Positions 10,081-59,982 of a stretch of DNA of 64,000 bases are shown piece by piece. The stretch comes from Candidatus Magasanikiibacteriota bacterium. GTDB lineage: Bacteria > Patescibacteriota > Patescibacteriia > Magasanikbacterales > GWA2-37-8. The stretch covers positions 171,842-235,841 of the forward strand of contig CAWDHY010000001.1 in NCBI GenBank assembly GCA_963802255.1, written 5' to 3'. How positions within the stretch are numbered: position 1 is the stretch's first letter; every line of letters starts with the position of its first letter. The notes under the pieces were generated by a model that saw only the letters and a list, made by a program, of their open reading frames with translations, ran no database searches and was not told where the DNA came from. A program made the position numbers and the translations under genes.

Positions 10081-10113
10081 ATGATTAAGCTATTTCGTTA
10101 TTATTATAGCACA

Positions 10114-14528: not shown

Positions 14529-14532
14529 AATT

Positions 14533-15633
14533 TTAACCAGTCCAATAATAAGCGAGAATGCTAAAATCGACTAAATTTATCAATTGGTCTCCATTCAGTT
14601 GGCTTTCTTCAATTGAGAAAAACGAGGGGAGAATGTCCCTTTTATACCAATAAGCGGCAATAGAAAAATCCACCAGGTTTACGCGACAATCGCCGTTTAG
14701 GTCGCCTTTTTTTGGACATTTCCCATCAGGTTCTTTAATAATTGTTTTTTCGCCAACCGTAAATGTTATTGGTGAGGTATATTCACTTTGCATTACCCCA
14801 AGAATTGCCCTTGCTTTTATTGAATATTGTCCTAAAAGCATTGTCGCTGTATCTATCGAAAGCTGGTAATTACCATTAGCTGAAGCTGTTACGTGATAGA
14901 TTGATTCGTTACCGTCGTCTCTTATTAAACTGAGAGTAATTTCCGCGCCAGGGGCTGCTTCACCGAATATTGCGATTGGTTCGCCCTGCTTTACTTCACG
15001 CTTGTCAGCGTCAATTGTAGGTGAAAGAAGAATATTACTGACGGTAACTGACTGACCTTGTTGGCTAATAGATGTATTAGTGATAAATGAGGCCGATCGG
15101 CGTCCGGCAGAGTCTACATAATAAACGGTGAAATGATAATTGCCGGTTGATAAGTTACCGACAATAATATTGAAATCGCCGAGTGCGGTAGAAGTGCCAT
15201 TTGAAACTAAAATACCGTCTTTTAATATTTTTATTGACGCGTATGGCGCAGCTTTACCGGTAAATGATACTTGAGACAAAACAACTGTTCCACCGCCTCC
15301 ACCACCACCGCCTCCACCACTACAGGCGGCACAAAGAGCTCCGCCACAGTCAATACCAGTTTCGTCAAAATCTTTTATGCCGTTTGTACAGTGACTGGCG
15401 CACGCCGGGCAAGTTGCACCGCCGCAGTCAATTCCTGTTTCGTCAAAATTTTTGATACTGTCAACGCAATGATCGTAGGGGACGGATGAACTGACTGAAA
15501 CATTTAATTTTTGCCCTGCGTCAGCCGTAAAAACCGCAAGAGGCAACAATAAAAACACAAGCCCCATGAAAATAATTTTTGGGGCTCGCGTCAAAAAGTT
15601 AGGTAAATTTCGTTTCAGAAAATCGCTCCGCAT
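14533..15633 (-). CDS. secreted dockerin-domain protein with duplicated Cys-rich motif and poly-Gly linker
   Basis: 366 aa. Signal peptide. Two copies of DFDETGIDCGGA(T/L)C(P/A)AC. A G10 run. Two C-terminal type-I dockerin F-hand repeats: GDLNGDCRVNLVDFSIAAYWY and QLNGDQLINLVDFSILAYYW. Confidence 0.6.
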   Translation of the reverse strand: MRSDFLKRNLPNFLTRAPKIIFMGLVFLLLPLAVFTADAGQKLNVSVSSSVPYDHCVDSIKNFDETGIDCGGATCPACASHCTNGIKDFDETGIDCGGALCAACSGGGGGGGGGGTVVLSQVSFTGKAAPYASIKILKDGILVSNGTSTALGDFNIIVGNLSTGNYHFTVYYVDSAGRRSASFITNTSISQQGQSVTVSNILLSPTIDADKREVKQGEPIAIFGEAAPGAEITLSLIRDDGNESIYHVTASANGNYQLSIDTATMLLGQYSIKARAILGVMQSEYTSPITFTVGEKTIIKEPDGKCPKKGDLNGDCRVNLVDFSIAAYWYKRDILPSFFSIEESQLNGDQLINLVDFSILAYYWTG

Positions 15634-27200: not shown

Positions 27201-29791
27201 TCTTTATGACCGATGGCTGGCAGGCATCGAACGAAAGGATGAGAATCACAAGTGATGGTTTTGTTGGAATTGGCACAAAAACTCCTTCCACAACCTTGTC
27301 TGTAAATGGGACTTCAACAATGAAAAATGTTGTGCCGGCTTCAAGCTTAGCTTATGATTTGGGTAATTTTGAACGTAATTGGAATAGAGTATGGGCTACT
27401 TTATATAATATAAACAATCAGAATTCTTTGGCCGCGATTGAGTCCGTTGCGTCATATGGACCGACATCAACATCTATCAATGGCACTCTTTCTATCACAG
27501 ATCCGGATAATCCAAATCGCACCGGCCGTTATATGGATTCTTATAATATTGCCACATTGTTCCCTGGCATTCCTAGCGGTTCTTCTGTAACAGTATCATT
27601 AACTTCAGGTGTTTTTGATACATATTTACAAATTGTTTCTGATACCGGGTCAGTTACGTATAATGATGATGATGGCGGTTCCGGAACAAATTCATATTTG
27701 CAATTTACGTATGACGCCAGCTCAACCTATAGCATAGTCGCCACAAGTTATTCAAGTGGAGCAACCGGAGCATATAACCTTGCGGTGGATGTGGTAAATG
27801 CAGCTTTGGATGCGGGCATAGCTTTTTACGATGCAGTAAATGGAGGAGGAAACAACTTGCTTACCGTATTGAACAGCGGGAATGTCGGTATTGGAACTTC
27901 CACTCCGTCATCGGTGCTCACTTTGAGCGCAAATAAGGAAGACATGATTATGGTCAGTAATAGTTCAACTAATAATTCCTTATTGGTTGGTAAATATTTG
28001 TCCAAGAATTTTGGTATGTCTCTTGAGACCGGTGCGCAAATTCAATATAACTCATATTTCGGCGAAGAGTTTATGCGAAACCGGACCAGCCTTACTGCTG
28101 ATACTTTGAACGGTTGGGGAGATTTCCAGCAATTTACCACTGATGAAAATACTGCTTGTACATGGAATATAGTTAATGATGTAGTGAATGGTATTAGTCA
28201 ACAGCTAACCGGAGCGGGGAGTTCATGTTTGCTTTATCATGGCCAGGCGCTTGCAAATTCTCACTTGGTTTTTGACGCTGATAATTTACCGGTAATTTTG
28301 ATGAAATTGTACCCATCAGCTGATTCTGCGACGGCCCGTTTATGGGCAGGTATCAGCGACTTGGCACAAGCGCAAAATTCTGACCCAACAAATGGAATAT
28401 ATTTCACAAATAACACGGGCACAGGAGATTGGCGTGGTGTTACAAGGCGTGGTGGAACATCAACGAATGTTGAGTGTACCGGCCAGACAATAAATAATAC
28501 TGTATTTGCCATCGCAAAAATTGAAGTTGTCTCTTCAACCGGAGCCGGTGGAGGGTCGGTTAAATTCTATATTGATAATGATACGACAGATGGTATAAAT
28601 TGGACTTATTGTGGAGAATCAACAACTAATATCCCGACTGTTGGCCTGACTTCAATGCTCATGAACTATTCAACTGCGGCGCACTCGTTGTATGTTGATT
28701 ATTTCCGTATCTGGCAGGATGATTCTTCACCTGAAATTCCATCAGAGCCGGAAGAGATGAAAGAAATTCCGGAGATCTTGTCATTGGATGAAAGAATTGC
28801 ATTATTGGAGAGTGCTTTTGCATCCACAACCGCAGATTTGACCGAGATGAAGACCACGCTTGATAACCAAGGTATATTAGCAGGTGAACAAGCTGAACAA
28901 ATAGCTGAAATTATTGATTCGGTAAATATTTTAAATGTTTCATTAGATGAGACGAAGTCCATGATTGCCGCTATAAATGACAGGGTAATAGTTTTGGAAG
29001 ATACGGCGATTTCAACAGAGGCTTCATTTGCTGATCTTAATTTAGCCATTACTGATATTAATGTCAGATTAGAAGCTTTTGCGTCATCTACTGTAGGTAT
29101 GGATTTTAGCAGTGGTGTTTTTGGTGACCTTTTTGCCAATGCCCTCATTGTTGATAGTCTTGCGATATTTAACGGGCCGGTGAATATGAATAAGCACGTT
29201 ACCCTTGGGGAAGATACGGTCGGTCAGGCTCAGATTCTCGCAGGACACAGCTCAACCACTGTAACATTTGCTGAGCCATACGAAATATTGCCGATTATTT
29301 CAGTGACACCGCTTGATTTTGACGGAAAATGGAAACTCTCTGAAGTGACAACTTCCAGCTTTAAGATTTCAATAAATGAAATTCAGTATATTGATATCAC
29401 ATTTAATTGGCAGGCATTTGGCGCTTCACCAGAATCAAAAATATTTGTTTCGGACGGGACATCGCGATTAATTGGTCTGGTGATTGTCTATAGCCCACCG
29501 GCAGAGGAAACTCCGGTTGAAGAACCGGTCGTTGAACCACCGGCAGAGGAAACTCCGGTTGAAGAACCGGTCGTTGAACCACCGGCAGAGGAAACTCCGG
29601 TTGAAGAACCGGTCGTTGAACCACCGGCAGAGGAAACTCCGGTTGAAGAACCGGTCGTTGAACCACCGGCAGAGGAAACTCCGGTTGAAGAACCGGTCGT
29701 TGAACCACCGGCAGAGGAAACTCCGGTTGAAGAACCGGTCGTTGAACCACCGGCAGAGGAAACTCCGGTTGAAGGTGGTGGAGCGGAATAA
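18254..29791 (+). CDS. giant secreted repeat protein (3845 aa) with tail-fibre-like G[IV]GT[ST][ST]P repeats and beta-helix-like modules
   Basis: Uninterrupted 11.5-kb ORF. Probable start at 18296 (MKKTAKNIMLGVFILLVFLLADLASA, a signal peptide with ASA cleavage). About 15 copies of the motif xVGIGTTTP/IGIGTSTP. Two pectate-lyase-like beta-helix starts (SGGDFSDIGEAIAFANSSTYDVIVNIYPGIYEV and AKKTIGAAI..YLVKVAPGTYNENI). An internally duplicated ~50-aa module (GIGTTTPLAKLDIYGDLILSGSDRYLNFNN.. and GIATSSPLAPLDVYGNMILSGDNRYINFGT..). C-terminal (PAEETPVEEPVVEP)x6. Confidence 0.85.
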   Translation: MIWREKKQESNFWVMKKTAKNIMLGVFILLVFLLADLASAIPNAINYQARLRDNLGAPIIASTTVQFSIYNNLTGGAPTDTPGQSGPLLWTETYDQASGACVKVSPDANGYFTLTLGECVAFPGYLDFSSGTYYLGVKIDTDAEASPRVKLNSHPYALNSDRVDGFHATSTATANQLLALGNDLSFNIGTGSYSGAGISLTSSTATSSISGNLSVIGNSTFATATIDNLILTNPLTLTNLNFTNATGTNLSLTNLTVSGTSTLGIINAGTWQGSIIDPAYGGTGQDTSGWSGFVKLSAGVWSTSTISLTSDVSGILPIANGGTNASSFSPYQFLWFDGSQLTASGFTSSSFLTYGTDDWVDITGDTMTGALIINNDLSVTGTSTLATTSASNLRLGDAYLFPTDAPILVSYKQYTDLTNFEFFPAHAFIVDLLPTADSSSTINSLISLTTNENSTTSFDLIAGTLSQVIHNGSGVVGAAVGSLSVAELASATGSINFAVGVAGQVNNGIENSTYSGTINMAAGVLAMIENGIGGGTIGNAAGLMTNITIDDGFINSAYGARINNPTSNSASGTIGELYGLYIEEQNFATTSNYNIYSGGASSTNYFGGRVGIGTTTPSYNLHVVHNENYNGPLVTFENINNGASSTELMQFKVGNYGGGIGVAGENFSDWGLTNIAGYTALVSGFPGASGNGLALLAGQSGNIIFYSGGYGPPTMDTERMRIENDGRVAIGTSSTFEMLTVAGGINIGATTTPTSTAGTIAFNGTDFIGYTGSSWVSLTAGIGGVTGSGSIGQLSFWDSASSITGTTSLFWDDANGYLGIGTSTPASIFYAVEDNDSWTMAQVHNLNTGPSSTASLIVRVGEDWGGGLFQASPNFSDYGLANLAGYTVLLSGAPDIQSNGLALAATGDGNMIFYAGGNGPPTADVERMRIESNGFVGIGTSTPNYLLDIFSTSSTVDLFRASNGSTGLFTINNNGRVGIGTDVLTGNNRLQINVGSSTPTISAVSSVFEIDSESGDFSDFNFRLSTTGTGSYPAMYFSRSRGTLAVPEISQNNDILGENIFQGYFGTDFQKAATIRATVDGNPTTWAVPGKLSFFTAPDIATGTAPLERMTIRNTGDIGIGTTTPLAKLDIYGDLILSGSDRYLNFNNATGSDGYGLRDNGGRIQFKHESGSWEDLYGKINHIINVAKSGGDFSDIGEAIAFANSSTYDVIVNIYPGIYEVSSTLEITSSYIKGIRGMSLSGVILTPTDALVTAAEPVFDINFTSSSSNFSMSEFTIDGSGASGFKDTTGCDAINISSEGTDWLELEKLYISDVNRGIDLQVANLADIYHVDFYNIGNAGVYIDNGGILQVENSYMEESDTYYAYIDSTTGASEFYMVGSEFGSYNDSGTGLYMAGDNSYSEIRYSNMWGLDNNIVVNDASTVKVTASYLQKALTYNVVQNGDSTVNISSSDGAFSSTDISINNADNVYFYALAEEESTVLFGRHDNIDQDILKVDTGQALLPKLSYRKDYYGNSGLLFINDNPGEETMFGVQATSSWARLSAVSGDRGTGAALLLYSDTEDFGTTSSLRGWAMSRNGADANLIFSFDNSDTGDSKSVVEDNRVMELDGFNTQMLVKGGAIFNTSSGAFDFIVHGDSDDNLLFVQGSSDNIGIGTSTPGYKLTVDGDVNITGAYRINGVSLTTLNPGTLTGQFAYWDGSAWSPTSSVFISSDGKIGIGTTTPLNALSVSGGIYVASGTPANTDFALYNNNGQLYWNGLPVMGGSTSTYIIDSDGDTRVMTENSPDEDYIRFETAGVQRMVIDNNGLIAINTTTQDGRAMYIYGDINSDVTLALHNNNAGVSSTAELALYNDLGKIGGLAGLSSGWNDGLPGISGSLALYSVSDLLLSTMGAGGDIIFDVDPSDEFRSLTIAGVGGANAGYVGIATSSPLAPLDVYGNMILSGDNRYINFGTTTGVAGYGFRDNNGVMELRNINNNLNVWSEIVVGDALLEANVIYVSGESGNDVFSGMSPAKAKKTIGAAITAAAASTTANSTYLVKVAPGTYNENISMADYVRIEGSGRNTVVSGTITSNVNTSTVLEKIRVVSTNDYAIKLTGAGRTNLNNIVVEANYNNDAAVQAAVYQEKGTLYAMGGTSQYKLTRSNDAAGTKINTLFYLSGSNLIRSNILNLEAQVVTYDTTDDLSYIYTDNSNASSVATVKDAVVSFSVYGNPPANFIKYIYHSGASLNSYIDASFLTAVAIFPGTVNFVPAYIANSGSTSTVKITNSTFNWAGAGISENSVYLSAAITDKDQVSLVENSFGTVSDIFPVAYTTDGSSGTIRYFIENGLGNIQNTAFTTYNGSFGIGTSTPYDLLEIWGVDLTSSPTSSRNYITVVANGNGETGNYFRRVNSGGYDNGWSWYMPTSSMDFRLWDDSVGAEGDDVLTVQAGTGNIGIGTALYDPLNKLHVDGGIYLGDTASATSTYSLYNIGGALYWNGNLLMSAGGSAANWILASHNGLNLTTSTSIPVWFQDSVYASSSLYVDGGSYLATTTISNATVGYLVINNTVTTTNLVATGNITLGGVARNTWPSGGGGDSNWATTSASVLYPSLTPPYAVVIGASVTSSDVIFEVAGDSYMSGDLNVGGSLTIDGNFQADYFTAVSTTAISYLGGGMVLGDPNATGITGYERIILSDDIGAFSDFSFKVAGNGYPVFNLGSSGGTTAAPSLTGNNNNLGGLDFYGYDGAAWQKAGGIIGQADGTPGLNNMPGKIVFSTTPTGSATPADRMVIDSRGFVGIGTTTPSAPLHVVTATSGPAMTILQKTIAGATNLNFVTNNNKYWQLSKRDATQDDKFIFYYVNDSGLFTNILTLGATGTVGINNENPNAMLTISGTSTYPLLNIMTSSSATGMYISNIGNVGIGTTDPNYHKLRVYADDSDVSAEVKTASSSKVALFNLKAGGDTNVLQLGYYGSTTPGFAGIPPDSAVFDAVAPGGAYIINEASGAPIVFMTDGWQASNERMRITSDGFVGIGTKTPSTTLSVNGTSTMKNVVPASSLAYDLGNFERNWNRVWATLYNINNQNSLAAIESVASYGPTSTSINGTLSITDPDNPNRTGRYMDSYNIATLFPGIPSGSSVTVSLTSGVFDTYLQIVSDTGSVTYNDDDGGSGTNSYLQFTYDASSTYSIVATSYSSGATGAYNLAVDVVNAALDAGIAFYDAVNGGGNNLLTVLNSGNVGIGTSTPSSVLTLSANKEDMIMVSNSSTNNSLLVGKYLSKNFGMSLETGAQIQYNSYFGEEFMRNRTSLTADTLNGWGDFQQFTTDENTACTWNIVNDVVNGISQQLTGAGSSCLLYHGQALANSHLVFDADNLPVILMKLYPSADSATARLWAGISDLAQAQNSDPTNGIYFTNNTGTGDWRGVTRRGGTSTNVECTGQTINNTVFAIAKIEVVSSTGAGGGSVKFYIDNDTTDGINWTYCGESTTNIPTVGLTSMLMNYSTAAHSLYVDYFRIWQDDSSPEIPSEPEEMKEIPEILSLDERIALLESAFASTTADLTEMKTTLDNQGILAGEQAEQIAEIIDSVNILNVSLDETKSMIAAINDRVIVLEDTAISTEASFADLNLAITDINVRLEAFASSTVGMDFSSGVFGDLFANALIVDSLAIFNGPVNMNKHVTLGEDTVGQAQILAGHSSTTVTFAEPYEILPIISVTPLDFDGKWKLSEVTTSSFKISINEIQYIDITFNWQAFGASPESKIFVSDGTSRLIGLVIVYSPPAEETPVEEPVVEPPAEETPVEEPVVEPPAEETPVEEPVVEPPAEETPVEEPVVEPPAEETPVEEPVVEPPAEETPVEEPVVEPPAEETPVEGGGAE
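29495..29773 (+). repeat. perfect 42-bp tandem repeat (~6.6 copies), in-frame within the 3' end of the giant gene
   Basis: Unit ccaccggcagaggaaactccggttgaagaaccggtcgttgaa repeated with no mismatches. Encodes PAEETPVEEPVVEP repeats. Confidence 0.9.
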
Positions 29792-37861: not shown

Positions 37862-39766
37862 TTATTCAAATTTCATTGGAACTTCGTCTCCCATAAATTC
37901 TATTGTTTGCCCGGAAATAGTATCGTCAGCTTTTACCCGCACCTTGGAGATTAGGGTGGCTTGAGTCGGGTTAACCGTGTTAATCTTGACCGAAAATGGA
38001 AGCGCCAGGACGTCTACGCTTTCCGGCATTGTTTCAATTTTCCAGGTAATTTTCTTAAGTTCAGGGTCATATGAAACCGTTCCGGCAGGCGCATCGGCTG
38101 AAGCGGTAAAAGTGGCATCGCCAAAAATTGTGGCGCTTAATTCTACATTTTTTAATGGATGGAAAGAGTTAGTTAGTATCCACTGGATATTGCGGTCATT
38201 TTCAGCTATCACTGAATCGCGCACCTCTAAAGCAATATCTGAATTGAGAGTGATTGCAACCGGGTTGCTGGTTAAACTTTTTTCTGCTCCGGCTTTATCT
38301 TTATATAAAATTTCAGCCATTGTTTTAATTACATATTCGGTCAGACTGCTCATATCAAAATTTTCAGTATCATGGATCGGAAGACGGACATCAACACTTA
38401 TTTCCTGTCCCGGTTTGAAATCGCCTAAGGTTGGTATGTTTTTTGAATTCCAAGTAATAATACCCCGTCGCAGAGCATCATTCACTTGTTCTCCTATAAT
38501 TGTTCCATCCAGTTTATCATCAATTAAAGCCCAATTCAGAGCGCTTTGGCGTTTAAGCGCAGGCGCTTCCAACGTCAATTTTAATGAGGCGCTTTTCAGA
38601 CTGTCTTTACCTGTATTTTTTATATATAGCGTAATATTTAGCGTATCGGAAGGACGACTGGACGAATCTCCCATTACGCCATTGATTGCCAATGAGAAAG
38701 TTTGATTGCTTTTTGCTAATTCGGTTATAAGTTCAGCACTGCCGATGCTGAATATTCTGTTGTCGATACCGTAAGGCATTTGAAGTTCAGCGGTTATTTT
38801 GGTTGAGCTGCTTTCTTCAATTTTCATTGTCGGATCAGAATATTTTCCATACACGCTAAAAATGATTTCATTGGTATTTGTCGTGGAAGTTGAGCTGGTT
38901 GGTTTGATGTGCCAAATTCCGTCCTTATCAATTGCCGGAGAAGATGACGTGATATAAAAATTCGCCGGAAGACTTGGCCGTAGATTTAATTTTTCAGGTT
39001 GCCATGCGGTTTTATTGACGATTTTAAATATATAGATGGCATCATCTCCGATCGTCGCTTTATCCGGTCCTGAAATTGATAAGACAAGCGGAGATTCAGT
39101 TATTTTGGTGGAAAGTGTGGCAATTTTTTGCAGTTCCGACTGAAAATTTTCCGGCGTATAATTGACAAATACTCTCCATGATTTTTCTTGCTCCAGTTCC
39201 CCATAATTTTGTCCGGTAATTTTAATTTCTCCTGTCTCGTGCGGCTTCAGATTACCCAAATTCCATTCGGTCGCTCCGCCATTGTCCGGCTTAATGTTGC
39301 TTTCCAAATAGGCAAATCCGTCAGGATAATTAACGGTTAGAATTGCGTTATTTAATGTTATATTTTCATTATTTTCAAACTGGATGACATAGGTGGTTGT
39401 GGCGCCAACAGTAAGTTCAACCGGACCCTTGATATCGAGTGAAAGTTGCTGATTTGTCCCAATATTTTTTCCCGGCAAATAGAAAAAACCGGCCCAAGCC
39501 GCAGCCGCCATTATTGCTCCGATAAAAAGCAGATAAAAAACACCTTTAATCACCGGATGATGTTTACGTTTTTTAATTTCTTTCATATTTGGAATTTTAC
39601 CGCTACTGTCTTCGTAAATGGATATTAATTCCTTTTCAATTTTATTTTTCTTATCTTTTTCCAGACGCTTTTCATCTGTCAGAACTTTTTTGCGCGGAGC
39701 GCTTTTTCTTTTCGGTTTATCACTCCCAATTTCGTGAGCAAGGAAATTATCATGATTTTCAGGCAT
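37862..39766 (-). CDS. large membrane-anchored surface protein (Lys-rich cytoplasmic N-terminus, single TM, repetitive ectodomain)
   Basis: 634 aa. ~85-aa K/E-rich N-terminal segment, TM (VFYLLFIGAIMAAAAWAGFFYL), then a beta-rich ectodomain with DUF11/CARDB-like character (weak call). Confidence 0.55.
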   Translation of the reverse strand: MPENHDNFLAHEIGSDKPKRKSAPRKKVLTDEKRLEKDKKNKIEKELISIYEDSSGKIPNMKEIKKRKHHPVIKGVFYLLFIGAIMAAAAWAGFFYLPGKNIGTNQQLSLDIKGPVELTVGATTTYVIQFENNENITLNNAILTVNYPDGFAYLESNIKPDNGGATEWNLGNLKPHETGEIKITGQNYGELEQEKSWRVFVNYTPENFQSELQKIATLSTKITESPLVLSISGPDKATIGDDAIYIFKIVNKTAWQPEKLNLRPSLPANFYITSSSPAIDKDGIWHIKPTSSTSTTNTNEIIFSVYGKYSDPTMKIEESSSTKITAELQMPYGIDNRIFSIGSAELITELAKSNQTFSLAINGVMGDSSSRPSDTLNITLYIKNTGKDSLKSASLKLTLEAPALKRQSALNWALIDDKLDGTIIGEQVNDALRRGIITWNSKNIPTLGDFKPGQEISVDVRLPIHDTENFDMSSLTEYVIKTMAEILYKDKAGAEKSLTSNPVAITLNSDIALEVRDSVIAENDRNIQWILTNSFHPLKNVELSATIFGDATFTASADAPAGTVSYDPELKKITWKIETMPESVDVLALPFSVKINTVNPTQATLISKVRVKADDTISGQTIEFMGDEVPMKFE

Positions 39767-39799: not shown

Positions 39800-42334
39800 T
39801 TATTTATCTTGGCGCATGAGCAGACTCCAGACACCGTCTTCAATTAATTCAGCGTTATCGATGCTCAAGCCGTTCATGGCTAAAGTGCAGTTATCACCTT
39901 CATTCCAGCTTGGATGCCAAGTTGCCGGGTAAATTATCTGACTTTCAAAATCAGTATCTTGTCCGGATTGTTTTTGTACCACCAGTTGAAAGCGGGAGGT
40001 TAGATACTCCTCATTTACAATTTTTCCTATAATTGGTCTTTCATTTGCCTGAGAAAAATTAACTTTAAATGGCAGTTGGTAGGTAAAATGAATTTGTTTT
40101 TTTTCTCCGGGCTCTAAAATCAACCAATTTCCAAATACCGTTTTTCCAAATTCTTCGGTAATTCGCGTACCGGAATTATCGTCAAAACCGACTTCCTTTT
40201 CCTGCGTTAAAAGAAAATCATCTTTTTTTGTCCAAGGATCGGGCGCGCGGAATTTTTGTTCATCGGGCCAGATAAAACCACCGGCAGAAATAAGCTTGGA
40301 ACCGAGGGGGACATAAACACGCATGTAGTCGATATTTGTCTGACCGTACAGTTTTACTCCCGGAGTGCCGGTATGTTCACGGGTGATTATCACCGTATCA
40401 GTGATTGTACCGTCTTCCGAAACAATAGCTTGATGACTGATGGTTTGTTTGATTTCAGCGTCTGATTTTTGGCCTTGAATATTTGTATTTACCGCCATTA
40501 TATAATCTTGCCCGTTTTGTATGGGCCATATATGACCGGCCCAGCCGAAATTTTTAGCAGTTTTTTCAATTGCAGAGTCTGTAAAATAGGCTTGAATTTC
40601 TTTTTGCGCCAGTGCTTCGGATAAGTTTGCCATTAGAGTTAATATTTGTTCCGGTTTTGATGAGTATATTAAACTGATAAATTGAGGTGCCAAGTCAGTC
40701 AGTATTTGTTTCGGGCGGTCCAATTTTTTTTCCGGTCCTTCCTCAACTACCTGCTGAATTGTAGCCAAAGCGTTGTCGGAAGACAGAATCAGTGACCGGT
40801 TATCATCACTTACAGGGCCAAGCACTAACAGTAGGCGTTCAAGCACAGTCGCATTAATGGCAATTACACCGTCGGCAGTAACTTTTCTTGAGTGCCGGTA
40901 AAACCAAAGCATTTTTTCAGCGCTAGCCGGAAAATCGGGAAACCAGTTTGAATCTTGGAATTCCCAGCGCTTATTAGATAGTAAAAGAGGGGTAGGGGGT
41001 TCAATATAGGTATCAAGCTGTCCCTGCAGGTCGTATGACCCGCCGGCTGGTATATCTAATTTAACAACCTTACCGTCTTTAACATCAAGTAGGGCAAAAC
41101 TACCTAAAAAACCTCCGGTCGGCCTTATTTCATGAGGATTTTGAAATACTATCAGGTATCGACGCAAGCCTTTCCCACCAAATATGTCTTCAACCGCTTT
41201 GCCAATTTCCACAATATTTTCCAAATCATCAAGGAATGTGCCGAAAAGTGAACGAAAATCCTTGAATGCAGTTTGATATTCAAGTGGCAAAACGTTTGGG
41301 TCAGCCGTTGAGAGGTCGTCAAGTGCCGCTTTATAGCTTGGCACAGCCGCATTCAGATGCTCGGTAATTAATTTAACGCGATATGTTATTGAGGACGAAG
41401 CCGCCTGACTTTCGTGCAGGCCTTTAATTAAATATGTATTGCCAAGAGCAATTTTTTGTCCGGCAGTAATTAATTTTTGTCTGCTTTGTACCTCGTTTGA
41501 AACAAGTGGTACAGCTGAAATAATTTTCTGCAGTAACCGATGATTACCGTTCATTACTTCTACGGCATTGTTGAATTTTTCAAGTGCTTCAATCACTGAA
41601 TTTTCCGCTCCTTGTAAGTCAGATTGCATTATTGCCGCAGTTGATTCCTGCAAAGCCATAAATCCCTCGGTGCCATTTTCCGCAACTGCGCTTGTCGTCT
41701 GCTTGATTGACTGATAATAGGTGCTCGCTTTAAAAGGAATAACAAGCAGAATTAAAACGATGGCAGTGCGCCAAAATAAATATTTTGCTAAAGGCCACAT
41801 CCCCGGTTTATTTTCCACAGCCGGCGAGATGATATTTTGTGGAGGATATATATTGCTTGCGGGCAGAACGGCATTTTCATGCTCGTAATATTTCTTTATC
41901 GCGTTTTTAAATTCAGCCATGGCGGCAGATGATTTTCTCTTTTCGTTCCATGATGCGTAGTCGCGCTTTAAGGCGGTAAAAGAAAATTGCGCTTTTTGCT
42001 TTTTTAGGCGAGGCATTATTTGAATATGTTTTGGGGCAACATGCTGTTTAATCTTTTGAACCGGTTCGTCCAATTGGAATGGAGACGGATGAATATCCGG
42101 TGCGAATGAATCAATTTTTTCCCAGAGATTTTCTTTATGTTTTAATTGTAATATATGGGGTGAACGAACTGCTTGAAATTTTTCATGCAAGTACATTTTT
42201 ATTGGAGATTCTTCACGTTCTTTTTTTATTTCTAATAATTTAAAAAATTCCGGACAACGTGATTTGTTGTGGCCCGGTTTGTTGCATACGGAGCAGGTCC
42301 GCAATTGTGGTTTTTTCCTGGCTTTCTGCATCAA
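39800..42334 (-). CDS. large membrane protein with N-terminal CCHC zinc-knuckle-like motif
   Basis: 844 aa. N-terminus CSVCNKPGHNKSRC matches CX2CX4HX4C. TM at ~180-200 (TAIVLILLVIPF). ~640-aa extracytoplasmic domain. Lies immediately upstream of the glycosyltransferase cluster and is possibly polysaccharide-associated. Confidence 0.6.
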   Translation of the reverse strand: MMQKARKKPQLRTCSVCNKPGHNKSRCPEFFKLLEIKKEREESPIKMYLHEKFQAVRSPHILQLKHKENLWEKIDSFAPDIHPSPFQLDEPVQKIKQHVAPKHIQIMPRLKKQKAQFSFTALKRDYASWNEKRKSSAAMAEFKNAIKKYYEHENAVLPASNIYPPQNIISPAVENKPGMWPLAKYLFWRTAIVLILLVIPFKASTYYQSIKQTTSAVAENGTEGFMALQESTAAIMQSDLQGAENSVIEALEKFNNAVEVMNGNHRLLQKIISAVPLVSNEVQSRQKLITAGQKIALGNTYLIKGLHESQAASSSITYRVKLITEHLNAAVPSYKAALDDLSTADPNVLPLEYQTAFKDFRSLFGTFLDDLENIVEIGKAVEDIFGGKGLRRYLIVFQNPHEIRPTGGFLGSFALLDVKDGKVVKLDIPAGGSYDLQGQLDTYIEPPTPLLLSNKRWEFQDSNWFPDFPASAEKMLWFYRHSRKVTADGVIAINATVLERLLLVLGPVSDDNRSLILSSDNALATIQQVVEEGPEKKLDRPKQILTDLAPQFISLIYSSKPEQILTLMANLSEALAQKEIQAYFTDSAIEKTAKNFGWAGHIWPIQNGQDYIMAVNTNIQGQKSDAEIKQTISHQAIVSEDGTITDTVIITREHTGTPGVKLYGQTNIDYMRVYVPLGSKLISAGGFIWPDEQKFRAPDPWTKKDDFLLTQEKEVGFDDNSGTRITEEFGKTVFGNWLILEPGEKKQIHFTYQLPFKVNFSQANERPIIGKIVNEEYLTSRFQLVVQKQSGQDTDFESQIIYPATWHPSWNEGDNCTLAMNGLSIDNAELIEDGVWSLLMRQDK

Positions 42335-42359: not shown

Positions 42360-43493
42360 TTATAGCACATTATTATATACCTCTAAAGTCGCTTTGGCAG
42401 TTTTATCCCACGAGTAATTGTGGATAAGTTGAACACCGTTTTTACTCAATGTTTCGCGCAGATTTTGGTCAGTCAGACCGCGCCAAATCGTAGCGGCCAT
42501 ATCCTCGTGATTATGTGGATTAAAATATGCGGCCGCTTTGTTCATAACCTCCGGCAAGCACGCGGCGTTTGATGAAACGACCGGTATGCCGTATTGCATG
42601 GCTTCAAGAGGCGGGATACCAAAACCTTCATAAAAAGAAGGAAACACATAGAGCGAAGCGTTCTTATAGAGTGATGGCAATTCATTTTCCGGCACATAAC
42701 CGGTAAATATTATTTCGGCCGGACCTATTTCCCGTTCAAGTTTTTCGTAAAAGAAATTTTTTTGTCCCGCCAGTACAAGTTGGTAATCATTTCCATACTG
42801 ACTACAAAAAATATTCCATGCCTTAATGAGGCCATCCAAATTTTTATGCGGAAAAGCAGCGCCGACATAAAGCACATATGGTTTAGTAATTTTAGAAAAG
42901 ATACCTGCATTGCTGTTCCCATGACCGCCTTCGTCGGTTGAATGATGATATAGAATATCTATAGGCGCCGGGGCTAAATGCGTTACCGTGATTTTTTCCG
43001 GTTTAATATTAAAATTTTTAATTATGTCTTGCTTGGTAAATTCGCTTGGTGCAATAATTTGTTTGGAATTTTTAACGGCATTAAGCAAAACGATCCGATA
43101 GGCCAAATTTTTAAAAAAATACGAGATTGGTCCGAGCGTACTCGCAGAGCGGGTGGAATAGTGGAGTAAAAGCAGATCATGTATTGTCGCTACAAAAGGC
43201 CGGCGGTAAAAAAGTGGAATATTCCAATGCGGGAAGTGCATTAAATTTACATTTTCACGTTTGATAATTTTTGATAAAAACATCTGTTCGCGCCAGCCGT
43301 ACCAATGAATGTCGGCGAGAACTTTTTTGACTTTTGGCGTTTCAGCCACCAAATCCCAATTTTCTTTACGCAAAAAAATAACAAATTTGTGAGTTTGGTT
43401 ATAAGCAGTCAGATGACTGATGAGTTGTTCCACATACCGTCCGATGCCGCCTTGTTTGGAACCGAGCATGCGGGCGTCAATGCCGATAATCAT
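42360..43493 (-). CDS. glycosyltransferase family 4 (GT-B fold, group 1)
   Basis: C-terminal Glycos_transf_1 motif YVFPSFYEGFGIPPLEAMQYGIPVVSSNAACLPEV. Start taken at MIIGIDARML (43493), which forms an ATGA overlap with the stop of the upstream fragment. The ORF track extends to 43523. Confidence 0.8.
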   Translation of the reverse strand: MIIGIDARMLGSKQGGIGRYVEQLISHLTAYNQTHKFVIFLRKENWDLVAETPKVKKVLADIHWYGWREQMFLSKIIKRENVNLMHFPHWNIPLFYRRPFVATIHDLLLLHYSTRSASTLGPISYFFKNLAYRIVLLNAVKNSKQIIAPSEFTKQDIIKNFNIKPEKITVTHLAPAPIDILYHHSTDEGGHGNSNAGIFSKITKPYVLYVGAAFPHKNLDGLIKAWNIFCSQYGNDYQLVLAGQKNFFYEKLEREIGPAEIIFTGYVPENELPSLYKNASLYVFPSFYEGFGIPPLEAMQYGIPVVSSNAACLPEVMNKAAAYFNPHNHEDMAATIWRGLTDQNLRETLSKNGVQLIHNYSWDKTAKATLEVYNNVL

Positions 43494-44728
43494 ATGCTTA
43501 AGTTTGCGACAACTGACAGCCACTTTTCCGCTGCCTGCTGCCAGGAAAATTTTACGGCTTGTTTCAGCCCCATTTGAGCGTGTAAATTATGTAATTTTTG
43601 TTTAGTCAAGAATTCATTCATGGCGAGCGCGATTTGTTCGGGACGGGTCGGGTCTATCAAATATGCAGCCGTTCCTGCAACTTCAGGTAGAGAAGACCGG
43701 TTTGATGTAATAACAGGCGTATTTGCCAGCATCGCCTCAAGTACAGGAAAACCAAAACCTTCATACAAACTCGGATAAACAAAGATGTCCGCTTTGCCGT
43801 AGAGTGCTGATTTGTCTTCAGGCGCAATAAAGCCGATGAGTTTGATTTTATCAGCATATTTTGAATTTTCAATTCTGGCGAATATTTCCTTATTTTTCCA
43901 TCCCGGAGCGCCGGCAATCACCAAATGATGTGAATATTACAGAAGAACAAAGCTGTTCAAATGCGCTGATCAGCCCGATAATATTTTTACGTGGCTCAAT
44001 AGTCCCGAGAAATAATAATAAATTTTTCCGGCAAACTGTATTTTTTTTCAATTTCTTCACTGCTCGCGCTATTTTTTGCCTCATTTATCCCGGGGTAAAT
44101 TACTGAAATTTTTTCAGAAGCAATTTTATAATAATCAACAATGTCACGTTTTGTATTTTCCGAAGGAGTAATTATCACATCAGCGCGTCGAAGCTGTAGT
44201 TTTCGGGGCAACCGCCTTATGCCACCAATATTGTTTACGCGTAGAAAATTCAGGAAAAAAATTAAAAGACAGATCATGAACCGTAAGAATTGATTTAGTT
44301 TTTCGCGATAGTGAAGTAAAATTTAAATTAGGGGAAAAGAAAATATCACTTTTACAAATTTTATCCAGGCGCGGATATTAAGCAGTCTCATGGAGGCATT
44401 GAAAATCTTATTCGGAAAATGTTTAGCCACGATTCTGACATTGTCATAATTCCATTTTGGGATGGCGCCGGAGACATCGTCCCAGGAATTATAAAATAAA
44501 AAATATTGATTGTCTCCGGTCGATTCGCAAAATGGCGTTAAGAAGTTCGTAGGTGTATTCACCGACACCGGTTCGCGGTGTAGTCATCAGCGGGCGAATG
44601 TCAATGCCGATGTTCATAAGATGGCGGGTTGATGCCGACTTGTTTTTAAATTCTTCAAATTTGCAGTCGATAAATTTTTGAATTTTCTCTTTAAAGTTTA
44701 TTGCGTCAAATTGTTTGGCATGGCTCAC
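43490..44728 (-). pseudogene. glycosyltransferase family 4 gene disrupted by multiple frameshifts
   Basis: Five ORF fragments in different frames tile one GT4. N-terminus IGIDIRPLMTTPRTGVGEYTYELL (44489-44728). Middle LLFLGTIEPRKNIIGLISAFEQL (43890-44084). C-terminus VYPSLYEGFGFPVLEAMLANTPVITSNRSSLPEV (43490-43924). Confidence 0.5.
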
Positions 44729-45740
44729 AGATTAAACTGCTGTCCCAATTTTCAAAATTAAATTTAGACACTGCGTCAAACAGCGATTCCCAGCTTTGGT
44801 CTTTGAAAAAAATGCCGGTTTGATTTTCTAGAATTGTTTCAGTGGCACCGCCCTCCTGATAGGCAATGACCGGCCTGCCGCTCGCCATCGCTTCGACGGC
44901 CGTGATGCCGAAATCTTCCGTTTGCGGATTGATGAAAGCGCGCGCACGGCTCAAAATTTCGGTTTTTTCCTGTTCGCTTATTGCTCCTAAAAATTCAATA
45001 TTCGGCCGGGCATGCTTTTTTAAATCGTTCGAGTTCCGGGCCGGTACCGAAAATTTTTAATGGCTGATTCGTAGATCGGTTGAATGCGGCAACCAAAATA
45101 TCAAATCTTTTGTATGGCACGAGCCTGCCGCCAGAGACAAAATAATCACCGATATCTTTCGATAATTTTGTATTTGTTTGTTTCAATCGGGGGATGGATT
45201 ATTTCGGATTCGCGCCTGTAATATTTGCGGATTCTTTGTTCAACCGTACGTGAATTGGCGATAAAATGGTCTACGCGGTCTGCGCTCATTTTGTCCCACA
45301 AGACGCAATCCATGCAGAATATTTGGCAGAAATGCTTTGATAAGCGGAGAATGATTTAATTCAGATATATATTCCGTTGAATCCGCCCAAAGATATCGCG
45401 GCGGTGTATGGCAATAGGAAACATGTAGCGTTCCGGGCGGAGTTATTACACCTTTGGCAAAAGCGCTGGTGGAAGATAATACTACATCAAAATCACGCAG
45501 ATCATGATGTTCGGTCGCAGATGGCATCCAGGGCAGATACCATTGAAAAGCGGACCGGACAAATGGCATTTTAGAAAGAAATGATTCTTTAATTTTCTCC
45601 CGGTCGAAATATGTAATTTTTTTCTTATCATGAAACAAAACAAAAATTGGCGCCTCTGGCCAAATTTCGTGGAGGGATTTCAAAACTCGCTCCGCCCCTC
45701 CGTCTTGCGAGAGATAATCGTGTACTAGGGCGATTTTCAT
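44706..45740 (-). pseudogene. second glycosyltransferase family 4 gene disrupted by frameshifts
   Basis: Three fragments. N-terminus MKIALVHDYLSQDGGAERV (45240-45740). Middle GGRLVPYKRFDILVAAFNR..LKIFGTGPE (44995-45186). C-terminus FGITAVEAMASGRPVIAYQEGGATETI (44706-44954). Confidence 0.5.
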
Positions 45741-45743
45741 ATT

Positions 45744-47163
45744 TTACCAGGCTCCCTTTCGCCGAAAAACAACAAAAGGAGTTTTAATCAAAATGATGAG
45801 ATCGATTAACAAATTCCAATTTTCAATATAGAAAGCGTCTAATTTTACTTCGTCTTCAAAATTCAAGTCGCTTCGGCCGGATATTTGAGCCATGCCGGTA
45901 ATGCCGGGCTTAATCGCTAGAACAATTTTATGATGTTTTTCGTATTTCTCAACTTCCCGAGGCTGGTGCGGTCGCGGTCCAACCAAACTCATCTGTCCGA
46001 TAAATACATTCCAAAATTGTGGCAATTCATCAATGCTCCATTTACGGATAAAACGGCCGAATTTTGAGACGCGCGGATCGTTGGCAATTTTATAAACAGG
46101 CCCTTCTTTTATGCTATTTTTTTCAATTAATTCTTCTTCTTGTTTTAGTGCTTCTTCTCCGGATTCGCCAAATTGCCGGCCGGTACAATCATTTTGAAAC
46201 ATTGAACGGAATTTTAAAGTAAAAAAATGCTTTCCAAATGCGCCGACACGCTCATTCTTATAAAGACATAGGTCGTCCGGTTTCAAGCAGAATTATTATT
46301 GAGACGATAAGGTAAATTGGAGAAAAAATAATCAATAAAATTAAACTGCCGACGATATCAAACAAGCGTTTGAAAACTCGGCCCCAGCCCGCCAGACGAG
46401 TCCGGCGAAGCTCAACAATCGGCACGCCGGCGATCGTTGTTATTGTCATATTTGATGAAATGGTCGCAAACAGGTCAGCTGAATATTTGAATGCAATATT
46501 GTGATCATTCGCGAAATCGATTGCTTTAAAAGCTTCGTCTTCATTTGCTTTCGGATCGGTAAAAATTATTTCATCGGGCTTGAGCGCCACAATTTGCGAA
46601 ATAGCTCCTGTATCAAAATGGGCGAAGTTTCCCACCAATTTGAAACCGGCATTTGTGTTTTTTTCCAAGGATTTTTTAATTGCGTCAGCCACCGCTTGCG
46701 TGCCGATTATTACTGTGCGTCGCAAGCCAATGCCGATACGATAAAGCAAAAGTTTTACAGCCAAAATTATCAGTCGACCGAGAAAAACATATACAATCGC
46801 CAAAAGCCAGCCGACTAAAACTAAAAATCGCGAATCAAATTTTTGTAAAGTAAAAAAAACATAAATGGTAATTCCGGCAAATCCGGTAGAGCAGGCAAAA
46901 ATGATGCGGGGCAGGTCACGGGCCATTTTTCGCGCCTGAGAAGTGCTGTATAAGCCGGCTAAAGCAAAAATAACAACCCAGACGGCGGCAACAAGAAAGA
47001 CAACCGGCCAATATTTATTCCAAGGTATGTTAAAAAGAATTGGCCGTATATCGCGCATGTATTCGGTGAAGCGCAGTGTGTAAGCCGTAAAGCCGGCGAG
47101 CGCTATGGCGCAAAAATCAAGCGGTACTTGCAGGACGGCAAAGGTTAATTCAAATTTTTTCAT
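45744..47163 (-). pseudogene. WbaP/PglC-type polyprenyl-phosphate sugar phosphotransferase, split by one frameshift
   Basis: N-terminal part (46258-47163) has 4-5 TM helices and begins the Bac_transf domain (RLFDIVGSLILLIIFSPIYLIVSIIILLETG). C-terminal part (45744-46286) has [21 protein letters not shown]. The two ORFs overlap in different frames. Confidence 0.55.
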
Positions 47164-47193
47164 GGTAAATAATTTTGTACTTTAATGCCCTGT

Positions 47194-47222
47194 ATTTTAC
47201 GCCATTTACCAACCTGAGTCAA
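47194..47222 (-). promoter_or_regulatory. candidate promoter (TTGACT-17-TAAAAT) for the minus-strand polysaccharide operon
   Basis: Minus strand: ttgact (47222-47217), 17-nt spacer, taaaat (47199-47194), ~30 nt upstream of the ATG at 47163. Confidence 0.35.
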
Positions 47223-47253
47223 TTTGTCAAACACTGATATTTTCGTTGCAGGG

Positions 47254-47282
47254 TTGACAAAACAGCTAAAATGTGCTATATT
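47254..47282 (+). promoter_or_regulatory. promoter of rnpB (TTGACA-17-TATATT)
   Basis: ttgaca 47254-47259, 17-nt spacer, tatatt 47277-47282. Predicted TSS coincides with the P1 5' end at ~47288. Confidence 0.45.
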
Positions 47283-47287
47283 AATAT

Positions 47288-47665
47288 GGTTCATTACAAG
47301 CAATCGCTGTGTATTTATACATGGAGGAAAGTCCGAACACGCCTCAGCCATAGGGGCTGAGAGCAGGGTAGCGGGTAACGCCCGTCGGGAGTGATCCCAG
47401 AGGTGCGAGCAGAGACGTCTTTGGTTGAAAAGCCAAAGAGAGCAAACCCCCAAATTTGTGTTAATCATAAATGAGCTTAGTCCTCGATCAAGGGGATAAA
47501 AGATCAGGGGTGAAACGGCAAAATCCTTACCTGCGTGCAAGAGCAGAGTCAGCCCTGGGCTGATAAAAAGTTCGCTCGCTTGAGCTGTTTGGCAACAAAC
47601 AGCCTAGAGAAATGATTGCTGTCCCGCTTAGCGGGATTACAAAATTCGGCTTATTATAATGAACA
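47288..47665 (+). ncRNA. rnpB: RNase P RNA, bacterial type A
   Basis: P4 5' strand GGAGGAAAGUCCG. GGUAACGCCCG (compare E. coli GGUAACGCCUGGG). AGAGAGCAAACC. P15-P18 region GAUCAGGGGUGAAACGG. 3' ACAAAAUUCGGCUUAU (P4 3' strand). P1 pairing guucauua / uaaugaac. ~378 nt. Confidence 0.85.
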
Positions 47666-47673
47666 AACCAAAA

Positions 47674-47693
47674 ACTCCCGAAAGGGAGTTTTT
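47674..47693 (+). terminator. Rho-independent terminator after rnpB
   Basis: ctccc-gaaa-gggag followed by ttttt. Confidence 0.55.
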
Positions 47694-47770
47694 GTGTTTT
47701 GGAGACAAGATATTTGTCAGATTGTCATTGGGGGGGGTATAATATGGATGTTAATTATTGTCATAATAGT

Positions 47771-48283
47771 ATGTCAGAAAAAAATAATTATTTTCCAAAG
47801 AAGGCTTACGAGGAAACGGAAAATAAATTTGCGACGGAAACAGCGGCAAAAGATGCTAGCTTCGTACCAAAAGAAAAATATGCACAAGCGGAAAAAGAGT
47901 TTGCAAAGGACGAACAACCCGAACTTCGCGCAGACATATTAGAGCGGAAACAGCAAGCGCGAAAAGAGCGTGCAGAGGATAAAAAATCCGAACTCTTTGA
48001 TGATATATTAGATTGGAAAAAACGAGTCGAGGATTATTTAGATTCAATCACTGTCGAATCTGTTAAGAAAGATCCGCATAGTGTCGTGGATCTTTTTAGT
48101 GGCCATCATACTCTAACTTGGCAGGATGGTCAAAAATTATTAGATAGGGCAAAGAGAGGAAAAGATGAAGACGCACTGAACGAGATACGTGCCGTATTCG
48201 GTAAATGGAATGAGAAAGGCCGTGAGGTTTACAATGATAAAAAATATACCCGATATCTGGAAGATGTGAGCTGGCCAAGATAG
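47771..48283 (+). CDS. hypothetical charged protein
   Basis: ORF open from TTG at 47699. A TATAAT box at 47738-47743 argues for a start at ATG 47771 (MSEKNNYF); an alternative ATG is at 47744. K/E-rich, no recognisable motif. Confidence 0.4.
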   Translation: MSEKNNYFPKKAYEETENKFATETAAKDASFVPKEKYAQAEKEFAKDEQPELRADILERKQQARKERAEDKKSELFDDILDWKKRVEDYLDSITVESVKKDPHSVVDLFSGHHTLTWQDGQKLLDRAKRGKDEDALNEIRAVFGKWNEKGREVYNDKKYTRYLEDVSWPR

Positions 48284-58938: not shown

Positions 58939-59904
58939 TTATCTAAGTAAGAGTAAAAAATTTGATAGCTTTTTAGGCATTACTGATTCGTATTCCACAT
59001 CATCGCCTTTTAGATTACTAAACCCCAGTTTTGCACTGTGCAGAAATAGCCGTCCGCATTTTTCATCCCAGACGCGTTTTCGTTTTTTTTGAAAATAAAG
59101 AGGATCGCCGACAACGGGGTGATTGTAGGCGAGCATATGAACGCGAATTTGGTGCATTCGTCCGGTATGAATTTTAACCTGAAGCAAAGTAAAATTAATA
59201 AACCGTTTTTCCACAAAAAATTCCGTTTTGGCCTCTTTTCCATCCTCAGTCGGCCTTCCCCGGACTGTTTCCGGTATTGCCGCCATTTTATCCGCTGTTT
59301 CCGAACGGCTGATTGGAAAGTTTATCTCGTCCCAGTCTTTTGCTACTTTGCCGTGCACCAGTACAATATATTCCTTGTTAATTGTTCTGTTCTTAAATTG
59401 ATTTTTTAGTAAATCAAACATTTTTTGTGTGCGGGCGATTACCATGAGACCGGATGCTTCCTTGTCTAAACGATGAACAATACCCGGGCGGGCAGGGTCA
59501 TCTCCGACTTTTTTTATTGAGGGGTATTTTTTAACAATCCAGCCGGCGAGTGAATTTTTTTCTTTTGCTTCCGTGGGGTGAGTCAGAATTCCCGCAGGTT
59601 TGTTTACGATAATATAATCTGGGGTCACGGCCACTATTTCCGGTTCGGTAAAATTTTCCTCGCCAGTTTTAATTTTAATTTTTGGCGTTTCTGATATTTT
59701 TTTGACAGCAGTAATTGTAATATGGTGCCCCTCCCTGAGTTTTTCTCCATATTTTTTCGGCGCATTTCCGTCAACTTCTATCTGTTTGTTATCAATCATT
59801 TTTTGTACTTGTGAGCGGGTGATGCCGAGTTTATCGCATAAAAAAACATCAAGCCGCTGACCGGCAGATGTTTCATTGATAATAATTTTTTTTGGATTTG
59901 GCAT
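58939..59904 (-). CDS. RluA-family 23S rRNA pseudouridine synthase (RluD-like, with S4 domain)
   Basis: N-terminal S4 RNA-binding segment (RLDVFLCDKLGITRSQVQKMIDNKQIEVDG) and catalytic motif HRLDKEASGLMVIART. Start placed at MPNPKK (59904), because the 13-codon extension in the ORF track overlaps the tRNA at 59910-59982. Confidence 0.85.
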   Translation of the reverse strand: MPNPKKIIINETSAGQRLDVFLCDKLGITRSQVQKMIDNKQIEVDGNAPKKYGEKLREGHHITITAVKKISETPKIKIKTGEENFTEPEIVAVTPDYIIVNKPAGILTHPTEAKEKNSLAGWIVKKYPSIKKVGDDPARPGIVHRLDKEASGLMVIARTQKMFDLLKNQFKNRTINKEYIVLVHGKVAKDWDEINFPISRSETADKMAAIPETVRGRPTEDGKEAKTEFFVEKRFINFTLLQVKIHTGRMHQIRVHMLAYNHPVVGDPLYFQKKRKRVWDEKCGRLFLHSAKLGFSNLKGDDVEYESVMPKKLSNFLLLLR

Positions 59905-59909
59905 AATTG

Positions 59910-59982
59910 TGCGCCTGGATGGATTTGAACCATCGACTTCCACCTTATAAGGGTGGCACTCTAACCGCTGAGTTACAGGCGC
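59910..59982 (-). tRNA. tRNA-Ile (anticodon UAU)
   Basis: Minus-strand sequence GCGCCUG-UA-ACUC-AGCGGUUA-GAGU-G-CCACC-CUUAUAA-GGUGG-AAGUC-GAUGG-UUCAAAU-CCAUC-CAGGCGC-A. 73 nt, canonical cloverleaf, U33 and A37 present, anticodon U34-A35-U36. CCA not encoded. Confidence 0.8.

Follow-up and report, generated by a model that had tools for sequence, protein, structure and literature searches.

Eleven clustered frame-breaking indels in three surface-glycan genes of a Magasanikbacteria-like genome: probably a local assembly error

A stretch of 64,000 nucleotides (nt) of contig CAWDHY010000001.1 (assembly GCA_963802255.1, positions 171,842 to 235,841), referred to here as the window, is a piece of a Magasanikbacteria-like genome of the candidate phyla radiation (CPR; Patescibacteria). 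Its minus strand carries a six-gene cassette in the order initiating sugar-phosphate transferase (ST), GT4 glycosyltransferase B, GT4 glycosyltransferase A, a third GT4, a DUF4012 protein, and a 634-aa protein. The first three genes are broken by 11 frame-breaking insertions or deletions (indels). The properties of these indels indicate that the assembly, accurate elsewhere, probably acquired single-base errors in this local patch during consensus building, gap filling, or polishing. The feature most probably has no biological basis, and the organism itself most likely carries intact copies of all three genes.

The indels were placed by frameshift-aware protein-to-DNA alignment of four intact orthologues and by MAFFT DNA alignment of the same loci, and the exact base was sought by scoring every possible single-base removal (Table 1). 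Both alignments gave a total of 11 events, one in ST, five in B, and five in A, dividing these genes into two, six, and six frame segments, respectively. The initial annotation had described three consecutive fragmented polysaccharide genes, and these were evident in the open reading frame (ORF) listing, in three-frame translation, and in the Pfam matches, in which pieces of Glyco_transf_4 and Glycos_transf_1 were spread over successive fragments of A and B. Its count of at least seven frameshifts reflected a real cluster but was an undercount, and its division into two (transferase), three, and five frames has to be replaced by the segment numbers given above. In the transferase, CoA_binding_3 occupied residues 68-187 of the 301-aa ORF, Bac_transf profile positions 1-34 ended this ORF, and positions 35-178 lay in the 180-aa ORF; indel 1 therefore cuts the catalytic domain, parting its start from the remainder.

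A net +1 shift of the frame was found for 10 of the 11 events. When compared with each of the four relatives, nine were clean insertions of one base; the remaining two were a net +1 within a length-variable segment and a single-base deletion. Ten events were contained within 1.4 kb (45301-43932), and the other lay 964 nt upstream. For indel 1, the alignment column was gapped in all four relatives in the MAFFT alignment, and removal of the single base at 46265 alone restored the frame at the top score. Indel 6 was resolved by the protein-to-DNA alignment with the closest orthologue (that of locus L001) only. For indel 8, the protein-to-DNA alignment scored an equivalent 2-nt skip, and MAFFT placed a gap in the window against a base in all relatives. 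When homopolymers at the junctions were examined, the best-fit extra base was usually located in a run of one to three identical bases, that is, mostly outside homopolymers; two sites had a lower-scoring alternative in an A4 run, and in three clear cases a different base interrupted a T run. Because most best-fit sites lie outside homopolymers and T runs are interrupted in this manner, the events are not slipped-strand mutations. Homopolymer slippage and phase variation were likewise rejected, since the sites lie outside repeat tracts. Inspection of the 11 indel contexts revealed no methylation motif or other shared sequence motif.

Deletion of the 10 extra bases and restoration of the missing one yielded a 472-aa transferase, a B protein of ~372 aa, and an A protein of ~374 aa, with no in-frame stop in ~1,217 codons. 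The repaired proteins were collinear with intact orthologues across Magasanikbacteria and other CPR lineages, and their identities to the L001 orthologues were 88.8% (ST; the L001 transferase is intact and also 472 aa long), 85.7% (B), and 67.7% (A). Gene A was 68 to 70% identical to its orthologues and was also more variable among the relatives. The transferase lacks one uninterrupted frame in the sequence as given, owing to the +1 at 46265. After repair, it passed the NCBIfam model TIGR03025 (EPS_sugtrans) with 371.7 bits against a cut-off of 295.55, over profile positions 3-444 of 445, and it showed the domain order of the family, namely, a membrane N-terminus, CoA_binding_3, and a C-terminal Bac_transf domain (PF02397). 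It fell below the cut-offs for WbaP (TIGR03022; 282 versus 403 bits) and WcaJ (TIGR03023; 308 versus 411 bits). The assignment of two GT4 enzymes and an initiating polyprenyl glycosylphosphotransferase in the initial annotation was thus sound, and its term "WbaP-like" applies only loosely. Both A and B contained an N-terminal Glyco_transf_4 domain and a C-terminal Glycos_transf_1 domain, as did their intact orthologues, and the EX7E motif was kept, reading EGFGFPVLE in A and EDFGITAVE in B in the repaired translations.

Four syntenic reference loci, L001 (GCA_026396515.1, a metagenome-assembled genome from Lac Pavin sediment), L004, L006 (GCA_028688375.1), and L007, were the nearest relatives compared, and all six cassette genes were intact in each of them. 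A wider survey covered 76 loci with one genome per species. ST and B were full length and in a single frame in essentially every survey locus uncut by a contig end (~70 species); the exceptions for ST were L078, with a deletion and a frame change, and L080, with a gap of 100 Ns. The first of these, LBTN01000003.1 of Magasanikbacteria GW2011_GWA2_37_8, has a transferase at 10001-11313 that is also broken, with ~45 to 60 residues gone and a frame change, in a stretch free of Ns. The apparent break in the transferase of L080, at 10558-10657, is the 100-N scaffold gap itself. No genome exceeded 89% protein identity for the transferase in the one-genome-per-species scan. The nearest relative showed 24% nucleotide divergence, corresponding to a long branch, and the less conserved proteins of the window were singletons in their own 90%-identity clusters.

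The damage was confined to the three genes. The third GT4, the DUF4012 protein, the 634-aa protein, and RNase J each matched an orthologue end to end in one frame, the flanking ~20 kb matched L001 proteins end to end, and the 3845-aa ORF was unbroken; the three downstream cassette genes (5.6 kb) contained no indel, and there was no sign of splitting in the remaining Pfam-matching genes of the 64-kb window. These results confirm the intact state reported earlier for the third GT4, the 844-aa protein, and the giant ORF. The probability of all 11 events landing within 2.3 kb when placed uniformly over ~57 kb of ORF sequence was ~5e-16, in agreement with the view that the breaks are not uniform sequencing noise. 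The third GT4 was 100% identical to P0121, a protein from a single 628,439-bp NCBI/ENA contig. In addition, fragments of 301, 166, 180, 82, and 79 aa were present in the public protein collection, all from that same single contig, and the frameshifts therefore sit in the deposited assembly.

As in a pseudogene, the reading frames are disrupted relative to intact syntenic orthologues. The spectrum of the events differed from that of natural decay. In real bacterial pseudogenes, deletions outnumber insertions (396 versus 300) and indel sizes follow a power law (PMC6054270). A spectrum with deletions at least as numerous as insertions and with mixed sizes was not found here, 9 or 10 of the 11 events being +1; if +1 insertions are assumed to make up 30% of frame-breaking indels, the probability of at least 9 among 11 is ~6e-4. 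A stop codon would arise from 4.4% of random substitutions in the three genes. With an indel-to-substitution ratio of 0.1, an assumption taken from mutation-accumulation studies, ~110 substitutions and ~4.8 stops would be expected, and none was seen (P = 0.008). The absence of stops would be unsurprising only at a ratio of ~0.5 or more.

Changes unique to a lineage were counted at sites where three relatives agreed. The window had 13, 8, and 20 unique amino acid changes in ST, B, and A, respectively, and the intact sister L001 had 6, 10, and 18; the corresponding numbers for intact neighbouring genes (window versus L001) were 13 versus 8 for RNase J, 15 versus 14 for the solute-binding protein, and 16 versus 18 for the DUF4012 protein. 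Unique nucleotide changes were 5- to 11-fold rarer at codon positions 1 and 2 than at position 3, as was also the case in L001, and the window's own 3-nt and 6-nt indels in the broken genes were in frame. Together, the unique-change counts, the codon-position bias, and the in-frame indels point to normal purifying selection on the broken genes for essentially the whole branch. Signs of neutral evolution, such as extra non-synonymous changes, stops, or a lost codon-position bias, were not observed, although a decay of very recent origin would escape this comparison.

The spacing of the events was also informative. Successive gaps between the 10 clustered events were 137, 140, 301, 87, 123, 137, 178, 181, and 85 nt, which is more even than random (coefficient of variation, 0.43; P = 0.006), with a minimum gap of at least 85 nt (P = 0.0015). 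Such regularity points away from independent mutations and towards some process operating on a fixed length scale; read length, stepwise extension, or a consensus window might produce it.

The combination expected of assembly error is present in the window: only single-base indels, conserved full-length genes upon their removal, and clean surroundings. On this explanation, the 11 breaks would be single-base errors, nearly all of them spurious extra bases, confined to a short stretch whose consensus would have been built on poorer evidence than the rest of the contig. Polishing may have missed the stretch, corrected long reads may have been used to fill it, read walking may have extended it, or coexisting strain alleles of a variable glycan locus may have confounded the consensus. 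A strain-variable locus, as hinted at by the position of A and the third GT4 off the species tree, could account for poor local read support. Long-read and hybrid assemblies are known to retain single-base indels that falsely pseudogenise genes (PMC12007338, PMC8574707).

Several points weigh against assembly error. It is deduced from the sequence and not seen in reads; the frameshifts are present in the deposited record, and a single assembly of the strain exists. The consensus errors known from long-read assemblies tend to lie in homopolymers and are spread over the whole genome (PMC8574707), whereas most of the sites in the window are non-homopolymeric and the other ~60 kb is clean, so that a special local cause must be assumed. 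Moreover, all 11 events fall in three consecutive genes of one pathway, and pathway loss would look alike. Finally, the nearest relative is separated by a long branch, on which any excess of substitutions left by a very recent inactivation would go undetected.

Such a genuine, very recent pseudogenisation is the main rival explanation, though unlikely, as it calls for an unnatural burst of insertions with no substitutions. The strain would have lost the first three steps of surface-glycan synthesis, under phage or host-attachment pressure for example, and the indels would have accumulated after the first knockout. The broken ORFs in a public assembly that is clean elsewhere, and the restriction of the events to three adjacent genes of one pathway, beginning in the initiating enzyme, would be accommodated by this scenario; surface-polysaccharide loci are often lost or varied, the A and third GT4 alleles are incongruent with the species tree, which marks the locus as dynamic, and a broken transferase occurs in another relative, L078. 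However, the "genuine decay in progress" of the initial annotation is disfavoured by a set of events that are almost all +1, with no in-frame stops. Eleven independent indels would have arisen without a stop and without an excess of non-synonymous or lineage-specific change, which needs the ratio of ~0.5 or more mentioned above, and 9 or 10 +1 events, mostly outside repeats, contrast with the deletion bias and size spread of real pseudogenes (PMC6054270). The spacing is too even for decay, the 5.6 kb of downstream third GT4, DUF4012, and 634-aa genes is free of indels, and complete loci from ~70 species otherwise all have the cassette intact. That the indels are real products of some local process adding single bases at intervals of ~90 to 180 nt is quite unlikely.

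Population heterogeneity, in which real indel variants of coexisting strains are stitched into a consensus carried by no single cell, has very little probability. The source is a metagenome-assembled contig, and with A and the third GT4 resembling variable alleles, several haplotypes may be present in the sample; yet many common frameshifted alleles would be needed, which the purifying selection seen in the three genes argues against. Nor would this reading account for the insertion-only spectrum or the even spacing, and graph assemblers normally take the majority path. The earlier suggestion of an assembly or heterogeneity effect is nearer the mark than decay, but the sequence supports local consensus error in general and not collapsed strain indel variants in particular. 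Scarcely credible is recoding, by which the extra bases would be real and bypassed through +1 ribosomal frameshifting, quadruplet decoding, or transcript-level correction, with the enzymes still made. The shared sign of 9 or 10 of the 11 events and the continued purifying selection would be expected of a recoded functional gene, but no motif, quadruplet, or slippery sequence is common to the sites, a deletion is among the events, and no such site occurs in any of ~70 relatives or in any other gene of the window. Programmed +1 frameshifting of the prfB or Euplotes type was rejected as a likely cause on the lack of a common motif and because the frame change at junction B1 lies ~20 codons ahead of the next 0-frame stop, where a stop-induced shift is inapplicable. 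Poly(A) transcriptional slippage of the endosymbiont type, for which tracts of usually ~9 or more are involved, was rejected as a likely cause because there is no poly(A) tract or other long A/T run at any junction.

The phenomenon fits the false pseudogenes created by assembly error better than bacterial pseudogenes, phase-variable loci, or programmed frameshifts. Real pseudogenes also carry accompanying substitutions and stop codons. The reductive pseudogenes of leaf-nodule Burkholderia (Danneels et al. 2018, PMC6054270) resemble the present genes in having several frameshifts per gene relative to syntenic orthologues and functional flanks, but they are deletion rich and varied in size, whereas the events in the window are almost only +1 and lack stops or relaxed selection. 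Phase-variable (contingency) glycosyltransferase genes are similarly surface-glycan genes turned off by frameshifts, but they have one homopolymer or short-repeat tract per gene in place of five non-repeat sites per gene. False pseudogenes from assembly, the problem addressed by Kastor (PMC12007338) and ARAMIS (PMC8574707), tools for detecting and correcting residual single-base indels, share with the window single-base indels that fragment conserved genes, which are full length after removal, and the absence of substitutions accompanying the indels. For a low-GC genome, the ARAMIS report gives mostly single-base A/T insertions (PMC8574707). Errors of that kind are mainly homopolymeric and scattered over the genome, whereas those in the window are mostly non-homopolymeric, evenly spaced, and restricted to 1.4 to 2.3 kb of a clean 64 kb.

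Table 1. Indels, cassette genes, and other features of the window (positions in the window)
Feature	Position	Strand	Description
Indel 1 (ST)	46265	-	extra C interrupting a coding-strand T run, ATGT[C]TTTAT
Indel 2 (B)	45299-45303	-	+1, somewhere in TCTTG
Indel 3 (B)	45163-45165	-	+1 in TTA; A4 run at 45166-45169 is a slightly lower-scoring alternative
Indel 4 (B)	45022-45025	-	+1 in ATTT, adjoining an A6 run
Indel 5 (B)	44722-44724	-	+1 in GCC
Indel 6 (B)	44634-44636	-	+1 in GGC, seven codons ahead of the B stop
Indel 7 (A)	44513 (best scoring; range 44512-44517)	-	+1
Indel 8 (A)	44374-44379	-	sole deletion, one base missing
Indel 9 (A)	44197-44198	-	+1 in TA
Indel 10 (A)	44016-44018	-	+1; A interrupts a T run, TTTATT[A]TTATTT versus TTTATT-TTATTT in L004
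Indel 11 (A)	43928-43944 (~43928-43935 in the alignments)	-	net +1; the segment varies in length, which leaves the precise base unplaced
Initiating sugar-phosphate transferase, ST (large polyprenyl glycosylphosphotransferase)	45744-47163	-	ORFs of 301 aa and 180 aa
GT4 glycosyltransferase B	44614-45740	-	six frame segments
GT4 glycosyltransferase A	43490-44617	-	six frame segments
Third GT4	42360-43493	-	unbroken; 377 aa from ATG, 387 aa as called in the public record
DUF4012 protein	39800-42334	-	unbroken, 844 aa; next cassette gene
634-aa protein (DUF11/CLIPPER-like)	37862-39766	-	unbroken; final cassette gene
Promoter-like site of the transferase	47194-47222	-	TTGACT, 17-nt spacer, TAAAAT; consensus match only
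RNase P RNA, bacterial class A	47288-47669	+	RF00010, 121 bits versus gathering score of 100
Promoter-like site of RNase P RNA	47254-47282		TTGACA, 17-nt spacer, TATATT
Terminator hairpin of RNase P RNA	47669-47694
126-aa ORF	47160-47540	-	antisense shadow of the RNase P RNA gene
194-aa ORF	47699-48283	+	Lys/Glu-rich
MiaA	36915-37826
3845-aa ORF	18254-29791	+	unbroken
Type II/IV secretion ATPase	10114-11856		strand opposite to the 3845-aa ORF
Cohesin and Ig-like domain proteins	12800-15633		strand opposite to the 3845-aa ORF
tRNA-Ile (anticodon TAT)	59909-59982	-
Pseudouridine synthase ORF	58939-59943		GTG start

The genes as such are ordinary, comprising an EPS_sugtrans-subfamily transferase and GT4 enzymes in a CPR-typical DUF4012 cassette. 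Judged by its family, the transferase would begin a lipid-linked cell-surface glycan, and the three GT4 enzymes would lengthen the chain. The promoter-like site of the transferase lies 31 nt 5' of its start codon, and the ATGA stop/start overlap between B and A is kept. The arrangement is like that of exopolysaccharide, capsule, and O-antigen cassettes of the WbaP/WcaJ/CpsE type in the N-terminal membrane region, CoA_binding_3, and C-terminal Bac_transf domain of a transferase that passes TIGR03025, and in the order of a transferase followed by three GT4s, the two broken ones of which keep EX7E. It differs in being CPR specific, in its linkage to DUF4012 and a DUF11/CLIPPER-like protein, and in a transferase that stays below the WbaP and WcaJ equivalog cut-offs. 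Next to the cassette, the window showed no flippase, polymerase, or chain-length gene. The neighbourhood was collinear with that of the relatives, in the order UvrA, pilin-like protein, DsbA, SecG, solute-binding protein, RNase J, a variable slot, the cassette, MiaA, and MiaB.

For GT4 A, the third GT4, and MiaA, L001 was no closer than L004 or L006 (~66 to 74% identity), whereas the flanking genes were clearly nearest to L001 (80 to 91%), which suggests allele replacement or recombination at these three genes. The possibility that the noisy stretch itself is a foreign or recombinant segment was rejected, as sliding-window identity to the four relatives showed no break at the edges of the stretch.

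An RNase P RNA gene was identified between RNase J and the transferase, with a strong promoter-like site and a terminator hairpin. This stretch had ~80% DNA identity to close relatives and ~70% to many remoter ones, and the RNA is placed elsewhere within the variable slot in L004, L007, and L009. The 126-aa ORF opposite to it is a mere antisense shadow. Decay reaching upstream of the transferase was accordingly rejected, the conserved non-coding stretch being an intact RNase P RNA and not a gene remnant. The variable slot between RNase J and the RNase P RNA is filled by the 194-aa ORF, which had neither a Pfam match nor a counterpart in any fetched relative; the content of the slot is quite different among the relatives, L001 having proteins of 514 aa and 87 aa and L004 an HD-domain protein.

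Elsewhere in the window, the 3845-aa ORF, a singleton in its 90%-identity cluster of the public collection, comes after an opposite-strand block that includes a type II/IV secretion ATPase and also holds cohesin and Ig-like domain proteins. A tRNA-Ile with the anticodon TAT was also found; this tRNA is uncommon in bacteria, in which AUA is usually decoded by a modified CAU anticodon. The tRNA gene shares ~35 nt with the GTG-start end of the pseudouridine synthase ORF, and the true start of the synthase is therefore probably further downstream.

The sign and context of the indels, the presence or absence of stops after repair, the lineage-specific change relative to an intact sister, and the spacing of the events are flags that can be raised from sequence alone. 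If the indels are true, the locus would represent a fresh knockout of the surface-glycan pathway of CPR bacteria, and its mutational signature, consisting of insertions only, would be very unusual. If recoding is true, three essential-looking glycan genes of a CPR bacterium would be expressed despite ten +1 insertions. The locus serves mainly as a caution, in that a face-value reading would count as lost a cassette otherwise found intact in all complete loci examined in Magasanikbacteria and related CPR lineages, and this score would enter the pseudogene counts and metabolic reconstructions of this genome.

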